A stretch of 19,889 nt of DNA, from UHGV virus genome UHGV-0130218; one strand, 5' to 3'. The notes below the pieces were generated by a model. The model made no database searches and was not told where the DNA came from. It saw nothing but the letters and a program-made list of their open reading frames with translations. Position numbers and translations under genes: made by a program. Numbering within the stretch: position 1 is the first letter of the stretch; every line of letters begins with the position of its first letter. Shown piece after piece: positions 2,506 through 9,344 of the stretch. The stretch is from a virus.

Positions 2506-2754
2506 ATGTATGATCAGTCTTTCAATCCGCGCACACTCTCACGATGTTTCAAACCTGAGGATTTCCATAAAAATAGAGCATTAAGTCTAGACAGTGTTCG
2601 AGAAAAGACTATTAACTCGGCTATCGAAAGATATAAGGATGGGTTCTTGGGTTATAATTTACGCTCATCCGTTTTAAGAGGGAAAACAGTATATTGGGCC
2701 GATGAGTTAGCTGATGTATTGGTCTTGAGGAAAATTAAAAAAAAATTTATCTAA
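2506..2754 (+). CDS. Reverse transcriptase, N-terminal (fingers) segment; frame ends inside an A9 tract
   Basis: ATG with RBS agga 8 nt upstream. 82 codons encoding ...GYNLRSSVLRGKTVYWADELADVLVLRKIKKK, consistent with RT motifs 1/2. Stops at 2752-2754, just after the A9 run at 2737-2745. Confidence 0.6.
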   Translation: MYDQSFNPRTLSRCFKPEDFHKNRALSLDSVREKTINSAIERYKDGFLGYNLRSSVLRGKTVYWADELADVLVLRKIKKKFI

Positions 2755-2845
2755 GCTATATCAATTAAGATTACCTTCTCGAACAAAGATTGTTGATACA
2801 TTAAAGGTTTTTTTATCAGAGTGTTCACAGTATAAAATATACAGA

Positions 2846-3769
2846 TTGGATATATTTTCATTTTATGAATCTTTCGATAAAAACTATATATTTAATAAAA
2901 TAGATGGATTGGAGCGGTTAGAGCTTAAAACAAAGCAGGTTCTAAAGGAATTTCTTTATTCATTCTATCTGAATGGTGGGCAAGGAATACCAAGAGGATT
3001 GTCAATCAGTGCATACTTGGCAGAGTTACTAATGTATGATTTCGATAATCAAGTGAAAGATAACCACTCTGTTTTTTATTATGCTAGGTATGTAGATGAT
3101 ATAGTTATTGTCACTAGTGGTTACGAAGATAGTGATGCTTTTATTGAGAATGTAAAATCAAACCTTCCAAATGGATTGCGTTTTAATGAAGGGAAGAAAT
3201 ATTATATTAGCGATTTAATTCCAAAATCTTCCAAAAAAACAAACCGTGCACCCTCCAAAAAATTGTTATCCTTTGAATATTTAGGGTACGATTTTAGCGT
3301 GGGAGATAAAATTGAAGAGTGCAATATAAGAGGATTCTATAGGGTAATTGAAATTGATCTTGCACATGCAAAGGCTAATAAAGTAAAAAGTAGAGTGATT
3401 TATTCGATTGTTGATTTTAATAAAACCAATGATTTTGAGTTGCTATGTGAAAGACTAAAATTCCTGTCCACAAACTTTAGTGTTTTAGATTCAGATAGAG
3501 TATTAAAACGGTTGTCGGGCATTCATTTTAATTATCCTCTTATTGATGCTAAATCTTCTAAGCGCCTTGCTGAACTTGATGTGTTTTTAAGAAAGGCTGT
3601 ATTATCATCTAGTGGTAAGGTTTTCTTTGATTTTCATGCGAACTTAAACCAATGCAAAAAATATCGATTACTTAAGATTAGTTTTGTTAGAGGCCATGAG
3701 AAACGTCATTTTTTTCATTATTCAGCTTCAAAAATGATGAAAATTCAAAGGTGTTGGAAATATGTCTAA
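2846..3769 (+). CDS. Reverse transcriptase, palm/thumb segment (the frame is open from 2729, so it is likely continuous with 2506-2754 after a +1 shift)
   Basis: RT motif A YRLDIFSFYESFDKNYIF, motif B QGIPRGLSISAYLAELLMYDFD, motif C YYARYVDDIVIV, motif D/E LRFNEGKKYYIS. No ATG or GTG precedes these motifs in this frame; the ORF track uses TTG at 2846. AT-rich. Confidence 0.8.
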   Translation: MDIFSFYESFDKNYIFNKIDGLERLELKTKQVLKEFLYSFYLNGGQGIPRGLSISAYLAELLMYDFDNQVKDNHSVFYYARYVDDIVIVTSGYEDSDAFIENVKSNLPNGLRFNEGKKYYISDLIPKSSKKTNRAPSKKLLSFEYLGYDFSVGDKIEECNIRGFYRVIEIDLAHAKANKVKSRVIYSIVDFNKTNDFELLCERLKFLSTNFSVLDSDRVLKRLSGIHFNYPLIDAKSSKRLAELDVFLRKAVLSSSGKVFFDFHANLNQCKKYRLLKISFVRGHEKRHFFHYSASKMMKIQRCWKYV

Positions 3770-5714
3770 AAAAAAGGAAGTAAGAGTTAATAAAAAAGAT
3801 TTTAATAGGGTTTTAGTTACTGAAACCATACCCTATGAAACGCCTATAATAGTGTCCAATGATGGTTTTTATAACAATGTAGTTAAATATACAACGGCCA
3901 ATGATACTGCTAAGGTATTGATTCAAAGAATAATTCTAGGGGAAAAGAAGAAAGGTAGGTATACGATTCCCTATGTTTTTAAAATTAATAAAAATGAGAC
4001 GGAGTTTCGACGTTTAGCCTTTCCACACCCCATATCTCAGATTGAAATGCGGGATTTTTATCTCCATTTTAATCAAATGATGATCAATTTTTGTTCCCGT
4101 AGTGATTTTTCTATTCGGCGACCGGTGAAGGTTGCAAGTACATATTATTATAAGAACTTATTGGAAGACAAGAATTTATATAAGAGAGGGCCTGTTGATA
4201 CCGACAAAAATGAACTATTAACTCGGCATGCTTCTTCATATTTTGGCTATCACGGATATGATCGCCTGTATAAGTTCTTTATGTCTAATGAGTTTATTGA
4301 CCTTGAGCGTAAATATAATACGCTATATACATTAGATGTTTCAAAATGTTTCGACAGTATCTATACTCATTCAATTTCTTGGGCTGCAAAAACCAAGACT
4401 TTCATTAAAGGGATGTTAGCTAATAAATCATTAAACTTTGGTGATGCTTTTGATAAATTAATGCAACGTTGCAACTTTAACGAAACCCATGGTGTAATTA
4501 TCGGTCCAGAAATTAGTCGAATATTCGCTGAGGTTATATTTCAAAAAATAGATTTAAATGTTCAGTTTAAATTAAATAATATCGAGCCATCGATACGTAA
4601 GGGTATCGATTATGATATTCGCCGTTATGTTGATGATGTTTTTATTTTTGCTAAAAATGAAACTAATGCCGAAATTATATATAAGATTTACACTGATAAA
4701 CTGAATGAATATAACATGCATATAAATTTGGGTAAAGTAACAAAAAACACTCGACCTTTTATCACAGCAAAAACGCAAATTATACATCACGTCAATCAAA
4801 GAATGAATTTATTTATTGAATCTTTTCTTGGTTATGATGATGAAATGAAATTAATCGCAAAGCCAATATATAACAATAGGAAGTTAGCTAACAAATTTAT
4901 AGATGAGGTGAAAATAATATGTGCTGAAAATAATGCGGGATATGGTGAGGTTGCTTCTTATATTGTGTCGGCGATTTTTGAAAGAATTAAAAGATTAACT
5001 TCTTCAGTTAATCAAGTCGAAGATAAAGATATATACAATGCAATGTATGTTTTGCTCCATATTTCATTGTTCTTTTTCAGAGTTGCTCCGTCTGTTAGTT
5101 CATCATATAAATTGGCTTCAATACTTATCGTGGCTCTCAGATATTTTAAGGCTAAAGTACCATCATACAGTGAGCTTATAGCATCATATGTTTATTTTGA
5201 AATTGAAGACTTTCTTAAATCTGCTAATACTAGCAAAGTAGCCATAGATAATCTAATTAGTCTTGAGGCATATAATATTATGTATGTTATAGGTGAGCTA
5301 GATCAAGAACGATATTTATCAAAACAGTTGATTGAGAACATTTTTAGTGAAGTTGATTCTTATTTTGATATAGTGTCCTGTCTATATATCGTAAAGGATA
5401 AGAAAGTTTATAATACACTTAAAAATAAAATTATTGATATTATTAACTCCAAGTTAATGTCAAGTGATAGTATTTTGGATTATAGTGAAAAGGCAATGCT
5501 CTTTTTGGATGTTATGTCTTGCCCTTATATTGATTTAAAATGGAAAAAAATATGGTTGAAATCAACTTTAAAAGAATTGCAAGAAGCTACTCCTAACAAT
5601 GAAAAAATAGATAGTTTTATCAGTTATTCTGTAGCGAATCCTTGGTTTGTGGACTGGAGTAATGTCGATCTTTTGAATTTCTTAGAAAAAAAACAATTGA
5701 AAAAAGCCTATTGA
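3762..5714 (+). CDS. Reverse transcriptase with long alpha-helical C-terminal extension (UG/Abi-type, defence-associated RT-like)
   Basis: 650 aa. Motif A YTLDVSKCFDSIYTHSI, motif B HGVIIGPEISRIFAEVIF, motif C RRYVDDVFIFAKN, followed by ~300 aa of predicted helical sequence. Its ATG overlaps the upstream RT stop by 8 nt, indicating translational coupling. AT-rich. Confidence 0.85.
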   Translation: MSKKKEVRVNKKDFNRVLVTETIPYETPIIVSNDGFYNNVVKYTTANDTAKVLIQRIILGEKKKGRYTIPYVFKINKNETEFRRLAFPHPISQIEMRDFYLHFNQMMINFCSRSDFSIRRPVKVASTYYYKNLLEDKNLYKRGPVDTDKNELLTRHASSYFGYHGYDRLYKFFMSNEFIDLERKYNTLYTLDVSKCFDSIYTHSISWAAKTKTFIKGMLANKSLNFGDAFDKLMQRCNFNETHGVIIGPEISRIFAEVIFQKIDLNVQFKLNNIEPSIRKGIDYDIRRYVDDVFIFAKNETNAEIIYKIYTDKLNEYNMHINLGKVTKNTRPFITAKTQIIHHVNQRMNLFIESFLGYDDEMKLIAKPIYNNRKLANKFIDEVKIICAENNAGYGEVASYIVSAIFERIKRLTSSVNQVEDKDIYNAMYVLLHISLFFFRVAPSVSSSYKLASILIVALRYFKAKVPSYSELIASYVYFEIEDFLKSANTSKVAIDNLISLEAYNIMYVIGELDQERYLSKQLIENIFSEVDSYFDIVSCLYIVKDKKVYNTLKNKIIDIINSKLMSSDSILDYSEKAMLFLDVMSCPYIDLKWKKIWLKSTLKELQEATPNNEKIDSFISYSVANPWFVDWSNVDLLNFLEKKQLKKAY

Positions 5715-5880
5715 ATTGCTAATTTGTTGTTGAAGCAACCAATATGCCCTACACGATTTTTCGATATACTAGGGCTGATTACGGTAGGTAAGTTGCATGT
5801 AACCTGGCCTACCTTATGACGCTCAAGAGCAGAAATGCACACACTAAGGGATGAGGTTGCTTCAACCCCTTTTATTTTCT
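5715..5880 (+). ncRNA. Candidate structured non-coding RNA downstream of the RT operon
   Basis: 5729-5740 GTTGAAGCAACC and 5855-5866 GGTTGCTTCAAC are perfect reverse complements (12 bp), enclosing ~115 nt with internal stems such as 5784-5789 GGTAGG / 5808-5813 CCTACC. A T-rich tail follows. No ORF. Confidence 0.35.
5848..5880 (+). terminator. Putative intrinsic terminator for the RT operon
   Basis: Stem GGTTG-CTT-CAACC at 5855-5867 followed by CCTTTTATTTTCT. The int stop codon (5862-5864 on the minus strand) lies in the loop. Confidence 0.4.
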
Positions 5881-7058
5881 ACAAAATTCCCCCACCACAG
5901 CATCAGCTCTACTCTTTGTTGCAAATAGACAGAGCGGTTGTATGCTCTTCGTACCTCATTCTTATCAGAATGAGCTAGTGCTGCTTCAATGACGTCTGGA
6001 TTAAATCCTTCTTCATTAAGCGTCGTGCTAGCTATCGAGCGTAAGCCATGAGCAACTAGCTTCCCATTCCAGCCAACTCTTTTTAGTGCAGCATTAGCCG
6101 TCTGGCTATTCATAGCTTTCTTAGGGTCATTTCTACTTGGAAAAACATGATCACGGTGCTTACTGATGGGTGCCATGATCTCAAGAATATAAAGCGCCTG
6201 AGGAGATAGAGGAATTAAATGTTCACGCTTCGCTTTCATCCTTTCGGCGGGGATTGTCCAGAGTTTTGAGTCGAGATCGATCTCTTCCCACCTGGTACCG
6301 GAGGCTTCAGAAGGGCGTACAAGGGTTAGGAGTTGCCACTCAATTAGACAGCGAGTAGGAACAGACAGATTTGACATAACCAAAGAACGCATCAGACTTG
6401 GTAATTCTTCTGGTCTAAGCGTAGGCATATTTTGCTTTTTAGGCCTCTCAAAAGCCATTCCAACTCCTGAGGTTGGGTTTGCGTCAATCAAGCCGGTATT
6501 TACCGCGTAAATCATAATCTCATTAATACGCTGTACCAGACGACGAACAGTCTCCAGAGCACCACGCGCTTTGATTGGCTCTAATGCTTCAACAATTGTT
6601 CTGGCCTTAATCTCCTGAACAGGTATCGTGCCTATTGCAGGGAAAACGTCCTTGTCTAAAGATCGCCAAATATCTTTTGCATAGTCTTCGGTGACGCTTT
6701 TGCTCTTCATTTTGAACCAGTTGGTGGCCACAGTTGAGAAAATGCTATCCAGCTCTATCTGACGCTTTTCTGATGCATGCTCTTGTTGCTGTTGTGGATC
6801 CATATCTAGCGCGAGCATGGTTAAGTGCTGGTCGCGTATCTGACGAGCTGCTGCGAGTGTAAAGGCAGGGTATGAGCCGAGACTCAAATTTGTGCGGCTG
6901 CTGCTTCCCGGTCGTTGATAACGGAAGCGCCAGAGTTTTTTGCCGGAGGTTTTTACGAGTAAGAACAGGCCATCACCATCATGCAGGGTGAAGTCTTTTT
7001 CGCGGGGTTTTGCTTTGAGGATTTCGTTGTTAGTGAGGGGGCGTGTAATGCGCGCCAT
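5862..7058 (-). CDS. int: P4-type tyrosine integrase
   Basis: 398 aa. N-terminus LTNNEILKAKPREKDFTLHDGDGLFLLVKTSGKKLWRFRYQRPG is typical of P4-family integrase arm-binding domains. The C-terminal catalytic region has HGLRS...LAHSDKNEVRRAYNRSVYL (R, H-x-x-R, Y). RBS aggga upstream. It is adjacent to a tmRNA 3' fragment, as with CP4-57 intA. Confidence 0.9.
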   Translation of the reverse strand: MARITRPLTNNEILKAKPREKDFTLHDGDGLFLLVKTSGKKLWRFRYQRPGSSSRTNLSLGSYPAFTLAAARQIRDQHLTMLALDMDPQQQQEHASEKRQIELDSIFSTVATNWFKMKSKSVTEDYAKDIWRSLDKDVFPAIGTIPVQEIKARTIVEALEPIKARGALETVRRLVQRINEIMIYAVNTGLIDANPTSGVGMAFERPKKQNMPTLRPEELPSLMRSLVMSNLSVPTRCLIEWQLLTLVRPSEASGTRWEEIDLDSKLWTIPAERMKAKREHLIPLSPQALYILEIMAPISKHRDHVFPSRNDPKKAMNSQTANAALKRVGWNGKLVAHGLRSIASTTLNEEGFNPDVIEAALAHSDKNEVRRAYNRSVYLQQRVELMLWWGNFVENKRG

Positions 7059-7311: not shown

Positions 7312-8172
7312 TCAAATAAATTTGTTTTTCCATGTCTCGTATCTTTTACGTATCCTTTGAAGTAGTAATGCCGTCCAGCTAAGGCCGTGAGAGAATGTTA
7401 GATTAAAAGTTGCTTCCACTGTATCTCCACGTATTGAGAATCTATTTATCCGATATTCAGTAGAAAAAAACTCTTTTTTTGTTGTTCCAGAGATTTCTTC
7501 ATATTCAATTAATAAAACAGGCCCATCTATTTGAGTTAACATATTTTCATGGAGGCTGATTTTATCCAAGAGGTAGTTAGATAATAGTGTCGGTATTAAT
7601 GTGGGGATGTGAAGATTTACCTCTTCTTTGTTAACGCTCCAAGGGAGAATATAAACAACATCAGAATATTGTTCTTCATGAGAATACCATTTGGATTGAC
7701 CAAAACCTAATAATGAAATGTAAGTGTGACCTTGTTTGTCTAATTGATAACAGTATTCATTAGCCATCATGGCTGCTTTGTAACCTTTGGTGTCAAAGGT
7801 ATGTTCATCGTCTAGTTTTTTTATTTTATTTAACAAAAAATGTTTTTCGTAATTGAATATCCATTGGTATTTGAATTTCAACGCTGGGCCTAGACCAACA
7901 TTTAATATTGGCAGGGTGGGATTGTTGTTTTTTGATATAGCATCAAAAACACCTTTGTTTACTATTTTTGTTTTATCAATTTTTATTTTTACATCTTTAG
8001 TGATTATCTGTACTTTGTTTGATAACTTTCTTTGGATAACAGTTTGCCTTATAGCTAAATAAGCAGCAATTGCTGATAAAGCACTTGCTGTCAAACCACC
8101 ATATCCGAGCCATGCGGGGTCTGCCATATCGAAGTATTCCTGCCTTATAACAAGGCAGGAATTATTTCTCAA
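7312..8172 (-). CDS. Hypothetical membrane-anchored protein; AT-rich moron between the lambdoid int and the att core
   Basis: 286-codon ORF with a TTG start; a more likely ATG start at 8127 gives MADPAWLGYGGLTASALSAIAAYLAI, a predicted N-terminal transmembrane helix. The ~240-aa soluble domain has no motif I recognise. Strongly AT-rich compared with the neighbouring int. Confidence 0.6.
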   Translation of the reverse strand: MRNNSCLVIRQEYFDMADPAWLGYGGLTASALSAIAAYLAIRQTVIQRKLSNKVQIITKDVKIKIDKTKIVNKGVFDAISKNNNPTLPILNVGLGPALKFKYQWIFNYEKHFLLNKIKKLDDEHTFDTKGYKAAMMANEYCYQLDKQGHTYISLLGFGQSKWYSHEEQYSDVVYILPWSVNKEEVNLHIPTLIPTLLSNYLLDKISLHENMLTQIDGPVLLIEYEEISGTTKKEFFSTEYRINRFSIRGDTVEATFNLTFSHGLSWTALLLQRIRKRYETWKNKFI

Positions 8173-9344
8173 TTCTTCACATTGTTCAAGGATGTGATCG
8201 ATGAGTTGTTATCATAATCTTTCAAATAGCGTCCGTAATGACGAAAGAGCATCTCAGGTCCTTTGTGGCCCATCTGCGCAGCCAGCCAAAATAAGTTTAC
8301 ACCGCAGCTTATCATACGTGTGGCGAATGTATGCCTTGTCTGATAAGGATTACGGTACCTGATACCGGCTTTCCGGAGCGTAGGAACCCAGGCTTTTTTC
8401 CTAATGGCGTCCGCGCTGGCCCATGGCTTGTTTGTCTTCGGATCTTCAAAGACACAACCATTCTTCATGAAGCTAAAGGGCTTTTGTTCGTTTAGAGCAA
8501 TCATCGCTTCCTCGGTTAACTCAACCTTGCGTGTTCCTGCCTTCGTTTTCGTACCTTTCGTCACGCCAGAGACGCTGGCGCTCTGTACATGAGCCGTCTT
8601 CTCAACGAAGTCAATGTCCCTCCAGCGTAGTGCGCAAAGTTCCGAACTGCGTAGACCTGTCTGAAGCGCAAATCTGAATAAGTTCTCCCATTGCTTATTA
8701 CCCGCTGATTTTAACAGCGCGCTTACCTCTGCTGGAGATAGTGGATCAACAATATAAGTACTTTCCTCGTCACTTTTTTTGCTTTGATATCGTGAAGCTG
8801 TTACCTGTGACACTGGATTAATTTGTAAAACACCATCAGTTACAGCTTCATCAAGTGAGGAACGAAGAAACGACAACTGGTTACGTATCGTCTTCAATGT
8901 TGTTTTCTGATTCTGAATCCATGTTTTTAATGCTGCTGGCGTTAACTCACTGGCCGGGAAAATGTGAAGTTCAGACAGTGCGCTACGGCATTTTTTATAC
9001 CCGCCAATGGTGGAGGGGGAAAGATTCCTCGTTTCGCAAATCTTCAGGTACTCATCAAGATACATTTTCACTGTTTTCCCGGTCGCAGCATTACCGAAAA
9101 TTTTTAACCTCACCGAACGAGGGAAATATTCAGCATAGATAAATGTTCCACGCTCGATTTTGTTGTGGATTTCGCCGAGCATACGCTCGGCATATTTAAG
9201 GTTTTTGTTGTTCACTTCTAGATTTGAAAGGGGTTCTCTGCATTTCACCCCCTTGTATGTGAACGTAATATTGATGGTTTCACCACTGCTGTGCTTCCTG
9301 ATGGTTACACCACGTGGGAGTTTAGGCGATTCTTTCGTGCCCAT
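8169..9344 (-). CDS. int: Phage tyrosine integrase (lambdoid type)
   Basis: 391 aa. C-terminal catalytic region RNPYQTRHTFATRMISCGVNLFWLAAQMGHKGPEMLFRHYGRYL (R...H-x-x-R...Y). Its start overlaps the xis-like ORF. Confidence 0.9.
   Translation of the reverse strand: MGTKESPKLPRGVTIRKHSSGETINITFTYKGVKCREPLSNLEVNNKNLKYAERMLGEIHNKIERGTFIYAEYFPRSVRLKIFGNAATGKTVKMYLDEYLKICETRNLSPSTIGGYKKCRSALSELHIFPASELTPAALKTWIQNQKTTLKTIRNQLSFLRSSLDEAVTDGVLQINPVSQVTASRYQSKKSDEESTYIVDPLSPAEVSALLKSAGNKQWENLFRFALQTGLRSSELCALRWRDIDFVEKTAHVQSASVSGVTKGTKTKAGTRKVELTEEAMIALNEQKPFSFMKNGCVFEDPKTNKPWASADAIRKKAWVPTLRKAGIRYRNPYQTRHTFATRMISCGVNLFWLAAQMGHKGPEMLFRHYGRYLKDYDNNSSITSLNNVKN

Follow-up and report, generated by a model that had tools for sequence, protein, structure and literature searches.

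A DRT3 operon with a frameshifted drt3a gene

The 19,889-nucleotide stretch of virus genome UHGV-0130218 analyzed here (the window) carries a locus whose profile matches and gene order identify it as a DRT3 antiphage operon, organized as two reverse transcriptase (RT) genes, drt3a and drt3b, and a downstream candidate noncoding RNA (ncRNA). The drt3b gene is intact, and drt3a is split at a run of nine A residues (A9) into a short open reading frame (ORF) and a remainder in a second frame. The operon has the following features:

2506 to 2754, plus strand: 5' segment of drt3a in frame 1, 82 amino acids (aa), made up of Drt3a residues 1 to 79 and then KFI and a stop (NF041747 positions 1 to 82)
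2729 to 3769, plus strand: 3' segment of drt3a in frame 2, Drt3a residues ∼76 to 420, with motif A (YRLD) and the catalytic YVDD
2737 to 2745, plus strand: A9 run at which the frame is lost; A8 is the allele that keeps the frame, read as AAA AAA AAT (K78 K79 N80), from the sequence and comparison with sister loci
3762 to 5714, plus strand: drt3b, intact, 650 aa (NF041748 Drt3b, 620.7 bits against a cutoff of 350; also PADLOC Drt3b)
5729 to 5866, plus strand: candidate DRT3 ncRNA, in which a long stem closes off several hairpins and the CACACAC at 5838 to 5844 is unpaired, followed by a terminator-like hairpin with a T-run

The interruption is read directly from the letters, with A9 at 2737 to 2745 in the context …GGAAAATT-AAAAAAAAA-TTTATCTAAG…. 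Frame 1 runs from an ATG at 2506 to a TAA at 2752 to 2754, and its 82-aa product ends …LRKIKKKFI* (…VLVLRKIKKKFI*); residues 1 to 75 of the Drt3a of Escherichia coli GF3-3 map by tblastn to 2506 to 2730. Frame 2 is open from 2729, immediately after a TGA at 2726 to 2728, and stops at 3767 to 3769. The earliest potential start in this frame, counting ATG, GTG, and TTG, is a TTG at 2846, which is L114 within the YRLD of motif A, so that no start codon lies ahead of motif A. The original prediction, made from the letters alone, had described this split correctly, including the absence of an ATG or GTG before motif A in frame 2. It had placed the stop six codons past the run, whereas counting from where the run ends makes it the third codon, and only counting from where the run begins makes it the sixth. 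It had also proposed that removal of one A fuses the two frames into an RT of about 420 aa, and the length is indeed 420 aa, but the junction that results, …LRKIKKNLSKLYQL… (…RKIKKNLSK…), has two K residues before N and not three. This restored product is identical to the Drt3a of most sister genomes. Because A9 leaves an 82-aa ORF and a frame 2 remainder without a start codon in place of a single intact ORF, the copy in the window is a frameshifted allele or pseudogene of the drt3a of a DRT3 system.

The restored 420-aa protein matches the NCBIfam Drt3a model NF041747 from end to end (385.1 bits against a cutoff of 200; profile positions 1 to 412 of 412), as well as the PADLOC Drt3a model (E = 3e-144), which bears out the earlier assignment of the RT to a defense system; the 307-aa ORF at 2846 to 3769 matches NF041747 positions 116 to 412. 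The restored protein, a UG3, class 2 RT, has the RYVDD catalytic motif, and the gene directly downstream codes for Drt3b, a UG8, class 1 RT. The drt3b ATG overlaps the end of drt3a by 8 nucleotides (ATGTCTAA), an arrangement that suggests translational coupling, and a protein identical to the Drt3b of the window is found in 270 contigs by exact-sequence count. Downstream of drt3b, the predicted fold of 5718 to 5880 has a free energy of −46.3 kcal/mol (z = −3.0), leaves the CACACAC unpaired, and is accompanied by a terminator-like site at 5855 to 5867. Its position and its candidate ACACAC template are as in EcoDRT3 (PMC13174585), and no Rfam family matches the candidate ncRNA. The 3' end of the candidate ncRNA overlaps the stop codon of a neighboring integrase gene by a few bases.

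EcoDRT3, the system studied as DRT type 3 (UG3 and UG8 RTs with an ncRNA; Wang et al. 2026, PMC13174585), is the closest point of comparison. The order of drt3a, overlapping drt3b, and, here as a candidate, an ACACAC ncRNA is shared, both window proteins score above the NCBIfam equivalog cutoffs, and the system sits in a mobile-element defense slot. The proteins are of different subgroup sizes, at 420 and 650 aa here and 398 and 667 aa in EcoDRT3, and, unlike its counterpart, the window drt3a is frameshifted, so that the system is predicted to be probably inactive. EcoDRT3 restricts phages T5 and lambda-vir. Within it, DRT3a copies ACACAC into poly(dTdG), DRT3b produces poly(dCdA) without a nucleic acid template, defense requires DNA synthesis by both RTs, and the system is toxic where RecBCD is lost or inhibited (PMC13174585).

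The in-frame A8 tract is ancestral

The exact Drt3b of the window is indexed in 459 blocks of an assembly collection, with Enterobacter hormaechei and the Enterobacter cloacae complex as sources. Exact-sequence counts find the A8 product (420 aa) in 279 contigs, the A9 product (82 aa) in 27, and the A7 product (86 aa) in 3; the products of A6, A10, and A11 are absent from this count. The non-A8 alleles, A9 and A7 together, thus account for 30 of 309 contigs, or ∼10% within one E. hormaechei clone. Ten loci fetched through their identical Drt3b give a similar picture, with eight A8 loci carrying a 420-aa drt3a and two A9 loci (complete genomes). One of the eight (L008) has a separate 1-bp deletion at 2533, and its gene is called at 373 aa.

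Relatives at 92% and 90% protein identity have the in-frame A8, and a relative at 85% identity has CAAAGTAA (V-Q-S-N) at the same position and no tract. Across the Drt3a family, R75 and K76 are invariant and N80 nearly so, with residues 78 and 79 variable. There are 259 Drt3a homologues at E ≤ 1e-10, and among the 120 listed nearly all are 410 to 425 aa long and cover 99 to 100% of the fused query; at 74 of 80 distant genomic loci the gene is an intact ORF of at least 390 aa. Homologues in which the N-terminal segment and the RT core form separate conserved genes were looked for, and the homologues proved to be fused. The comparisons therefore describe a family that is a single ORF of ∼420 aa. 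Among species representatives in GTDB there are only distant Drt3a relatives (≤44% identity), and the E. hormaechei representative is without the element. A scan of the JGI metagenomes for the tract with a variable gap gave no match, and a scan of IMG/VR gave one, which is A8.

Given the allele counts, the relatives at 90 to 92% identity, and the single-ORF family, A8 is the ancestral and functional state and A9 is derived. Among the options that the original prediction had offered, an inactivating mutation is the one that fits best, A8 being both the majority and the ancestral allele in a single-ORF family.

A different reading is that A9 is a programmed recoding site, expressed by transcriptional slippage or by +1 ribosomal frameshifting to give a set ratio of the 82-aa peptide to full-length Drt3a. 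Nine-A runs are productive slippage sites in several bacteria (PMC1088944), an A11 run rescues Citrobacter rodentium tssM1 at ∼20 to 25% (PMC4256274), and a +1 shift of tRNA-Lys inside the drt3a run would recreate the wild-type sequence exactly. Restoring the frame of A9 takes a 1-nucleotide deletion in the mRNA, a 2-nucleotide insertion, or a +1 ribosomal shift; a −1 ribosomal frameshift on A_AAA_AAA was considered and rejected, since it does not restore the frame, for which +1 or −2 is required. The need for a 1-nucleotide deletion or a 2-nucleotide insertion counts against recoding: E. coli RNA polymerase transcribing sense poly(A) tracts as long as A8 makes deletions at an undetectable level and insertions at a barely detectable one (PMC6260861). 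No element that would stimulate frameshifting, for instance a slow codon combined with a Shine-Dalgarno sequence upstream, was seen, the codons that follow the run being the ordinary TTT and ATC.

The distribution of the alleles bears on the same question, as a recoding site would be expected as a conserved out-of-frame run. Here the out-of-frame arrangement is a derived minority (27 A9 contigs against 279 A8), relatives at 90 to 92% identity have A8, and most distant loci (74 of 80) have a single ORF. Two published cases illustrate the difference. Like drt3a, tssM1 of C. rodentium is an enterobacterial gene broken just past a poly(A) run, in that case A11, and transcripts of altered length restore its frame (Gueguen et al. 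2014, PMC4256274). However, the tssM1 interruption is fixed in the species, both of its products are needed, and its rescue at ∼20 to 25% is by insertion (PMC4256274), whereas the drt3a interruption is a minority allele with a shorter run, A9, whose rescue would need a deletion. The 9A and 9T slippage sites of Thermus dnaX, Shigella mxiE, and insertion sequence (IS) elements (Baranov et al. 2005, PMC1088944) are equal to the drt3a run in length and base, but they are conserved among homologues as out-of-frame or dual-product arrangements, and the drt3a A9 is not. On these comparisons A9 does not qualify as a conserved recoding site, and programmed recoding is given only a very small chance. 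The suggestion of a slippage-dependent switch in the original prediction is not supported, as a design, on the same two grounds, the lack of a conserved out-of-frame layout in relatives and the undetectable 1-nucleotide deletion on runs up to A8 (PMC6260861).

GreA influences transcription fidelity. Deletion of greA abolishes defense by EcoDRT3, with the cause unexplained in that study (PMC13174585). The DRT3 operons of the clade to which the window belongs carry several A8 runs, and a link between greA and slippage would be pure speculation.

A9 is a heritable variant

The original prediction had raised the possibility of a sequencing or assembly error, in which the true run would be A8 and the extra A a homopolymer error. 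Homopolymers are error-prone in long-read assemblies, and complete genomes (CP181762.1 and CP175998.1) are the source of two A9 loci. The operon supplies its own comparison in two further tracts of the original length:

3768 to 3775, plus strand: second A8 tract, covering bases 2 and 3 of the drt3a stop codon and lying in drt3b codons 3 to 5
5686 to 5693, plus strand: third A8 tract, near the 3' end of drt3b, an internal control for homopolymer length errors

These equal-length tracts are nearly invariant, with length variants in one contig at the former and none at the latter; for the tract at 5686 to 5693, a collection of 15 billion proteins contains no A7 product and no A9 product. The one variant at 3768 to 3775 is an A9 in an E. 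hormaechei genome (QFI31196.1, P0023, 654 aa) that puts drt3b out of frame with its ATG.

The drt3a A9 itself is found in at least 27 contigs of independent assemblies, among them complete NCBI genomes, ENA metagenome assemblies made with SPAdes and MEGAHIT, and Logan assemblies of public runs. It cosegregates with linked single-nucleotide polymorphisms (SNPs), with 209G in seven A9 loci and 5367T/5831G in two, and neither in any A8 locus. An independent MEGAHIT contig that is also A9 matches the window over 6,754 bases with 0 mismatches. Relative to the GF3-3 locus, the indel in the A run is the sole one within the coding regions of drt3a, drt3b, and the integrase, which together span 4.5 kb. 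Homopolymer error thus has scarcely any chance of being the explanation, and the linked variation points to A9 as a real, heritable variant that has spread with a sublineage of the clone, error being very unlikely.

The tract changed length at least twice

Carriers of the Drt3b of the window form a tight clone, with 0 to 3 SNPs over 13 kb, of which 6 kb is chromosomal flank; the right flank has one private SNP in 2.1 kb and gives no lineage resolution. The A9 loci occur in at least five different right-hand contexts, and within the clone their haplotypes are compatible with one insertion event and later diversification; neither homoplasy nor reversion was seen. When a 271-aa cargo gene on the right (7312 to 8127) is used as a lineage marker, one match reaches the tract (L122) and is A9, and a second (L124) reaches drt3a and ends before the tract.

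A DRT3 locus at 97.4% identity in another genomic context (L023, also L012; ENA ERZ8157675 NODE_328) is also A9. Its SNPs relative to the window are spread along the whole locus, and the two drt3a genes differ by 15 synonymous and 7 nonsynonymous codon changes, a ratio that points to purifying selection on the L023 gene for most of its divergence. Its frameshift would therefore be younger than most of that divergence and independent of the one in the clone. An intact protein found in 24 contigs (P0004) is intermediate between the Drt3a of the window and that of L023. In addition, an invariant Drt3a residue is altered in L023 (Y261C) and the L023 integrase gene carries two frameshifts; the locus is best described as a second, more decayed copy. 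At least two independent A9 gains, in the clone and in L023, can thus be inferred in addition to A7, and the tract appears to be an indel hotspot in which A9 arose separately in a 2.6%-diverged lineage.

The composition of the operon was taken into account by resampling synonymous codons with the operon's own usage. The operon is 30 to 32% G+C, and three A/T runs of 8 or more are observed against a mean of 2.8 expected (P of at least as many = 0.59); the probability of an A8 at K-K-N is ∼0.5. Because the number of runs equals the codon-usage expectation, the tract itself is unremarkable; nothing indicates selection for it, and the ninth A is the event.

These observations bear on a further alternative, a contingency locus, in which the A8 tract is retained for its ability to turn the system reversibly on and off and populations are mixtures of DRT3-on and DRT3-off cells, the benefit being escape from the burden or self-toxicity of abortive infection by a system with continuous DNA synthesis. 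The tract is mutable and inside an ORF, and A7, A8, and A9 segregate in near-clonal genomes. Variants occur in both directions (A9 in 27 contigs and A7 in 3), an independent and younger A9 is present in the 2.6%-diverged lineage, the other two A8 tracts of the operon vary in only 1 and 0 contigs, and the A8 tract is kept in relatives at 90 to 92% identity. The toxicity of DRT3 without RecBCD (PMC13174585) could at times favor the off state. However, the tract does not exceed what composition and codon usage predict, and it is absent from the 85%-identity relative. The A9 loci of the clone fit one origin, no A8 locus has the A9-linked SNPs, and reversion is not documented. Other lesions look like erosion, namely the decay of L023 (Y261C and the broken integrase) and, in the same clone as the window, the deletion at 2533 of CP077264.1 (L035, also L008), which lies outside long homopolymers in a locus with an A8 tract. 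On balance phase variation is an unlikely explanation, if one with several observations in its favor.

Phase-variable restriction-modification mod genes are an example of phase variation at homopolymer tracts. With homopolymer phase variation and microevolution in Bordetella pertussis (PMC1891110) and the M. tuberculosis complex (PMC10334774), the likeness to drt3a lies in a coding homopolymer with +1 and −1 alleles in a clonal pathogen and a gene switched off. The drt3a tract differs in that it is at the codon-usage expectation. The strongest form of the idea is that the K78-K79-N80 tract is a true reversible DRT3 switch by which sublineages of a hospital-associated Enterobacter clone would turn a costly system, restrained by RecBCD, off and on, with A9 and A7 off, A8 on, and perhaps a low, slippage-dependent level of Drt3a from A9; this we regard as quite unlikely. 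If true, it would be the first phase-variable RT defense system and would extend phase variation from restriction-modification to RT-based defense.

Probable inactivation at a mutational hotspot

A plain inactivating mutation at a mutational hotspot is the probable explanation of the A9 allele. The A8 run encoding K78-K79-N80 would be present only through an AT-rich gene and a lysine-rich stretch, and replication slippage, as the presumed cause, would have added one A in the lineage of the window. Translation is then predicted to stop after 82 residues, leaving the remaining RT (the fingers from R75, motifs A to E, and YVDD) out of frame and without a start codon of its own. Because EcoDRT3 defense needs DNA synthesis by both RTs, A9 is by extension most likely a DRT3-off or strongly weakened state, and loss of DRT3 defense is the most likely outcome. 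The early stop lies 1 kb ahead of the drt3b start, which overlaps drt3a, and through polarity and loss of coupling it probably reduces the expression of drt3b and the ncRNA as well. A return from A9 to A8 would in principle reverse the state. At most a small leak is expected from A9, conceivably through 1-nucleotide-deletion transcripts or +1 slippage of tRNA-Lys.

Several points weigh against inactivation as a full account. The A9 genomes show no further damage in drt3b, the ncRNA, or the frame 2 part of drt3a; this undamaged remainder says little, as the A9 genomes are too recent, with 0 to 3 SNPs in 13 kb. A9 runs are classic slippage sites (PMC1088944), and some full-length Drt3a may still be made. 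Separate changes in tract length number at least two or three (A9 both in the clone and in L023, and A7 in three contigs), with 1 and 0 variants at the other A8 tracts, and such repeated change could be a sign that switching is selected and that the gene is not simply decaying. Both the system and this kind of mutation are known already; the particular polymorphism is new but ordinary.

Genomic setting

The DRT3 operon of this E. hormaechei clone is carried by a decayed P4-like satellite at ssrA, of which two parts can be recognized in the window:

1336 to 2228: remnants of the P4-like satellite backbone, from tblastn of GF3-3 satellite proteins and the GF3-3 annotation
5862 to 7058, minus strand: P4-type tyrosine integrase of the DRT3 satellite, intact, 398 aa (NF007246, 580 bits)

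The syntenic E. coli GF3-3 locus, at 86% identity, has annotated drt3a and drt3b genes that, within a P4-like satellite adjoining ssrA, are flanked by psu and the integrase; it is the only related locus found in a search of complete E. coli genomes and serves as an intact reference. What remains at 1336 to 2228 is the final 74 aa of the primase, capsid fragments that include a frameshift, an Ogr/Delta-like ORF, and 46 aa from the end of psu. A generally error-ridden assembly was considered as the source of the small ORFs at 1300 to 2230 and rejected, as these stem from large deletions in the P4-like backbone and not from scattered indels.

To the left, on the minus strand, are a 99-aa CdiI_2-like ORF (50 to 349) and a 281-aa ORF (362 to 1207) with a bacterial RNase-A domain (PF18431). 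Their domain matches suggest that they are probably a toxin/immunity pair, and the pair occupies the exact point at which the P4-like primase gene has been truncated, with only its final 74 codons left. An alternative reading of the two ORFs (50 to 1207) as an IS3-type transposase was rejected in view of these CdiI_2-like and RNase-A-like matches. In some sister genomes the putative RNase-A-like toxin is annotated with a length of 269 or 274 aa.

To the right, a second prophage begins in tandem at ∼7300, at the same ssrA site, with its integrase at 8169 to 9344 on the minus strand. The 271-aa gene at 7312 to 8127, also on the minus strand, lies between this integrase and the attachment site; its function is unassigned, and PADLOC gives no match to the protein. 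In sister strains the same slot is occupied either by a CbiA/ParA-like gene accompanied by two small ORFs or by a D12 methyltransferase together with an AAA_15 ATPase, and from this turnover the position beside the second integrase looks like a variable cargo slot for defense genes.

Implications

The locus is best annotated as a frameshifted drt3a in an otherwise complete DRT3 operon, and neither as two genes nor as a recoding event. Calls of DRT3 presence or absence would overstate the functional immunity of A9 and A7 strains, and the A8/A9 allele pair would offer a natural experiment on the cost of DRT3 to its host.

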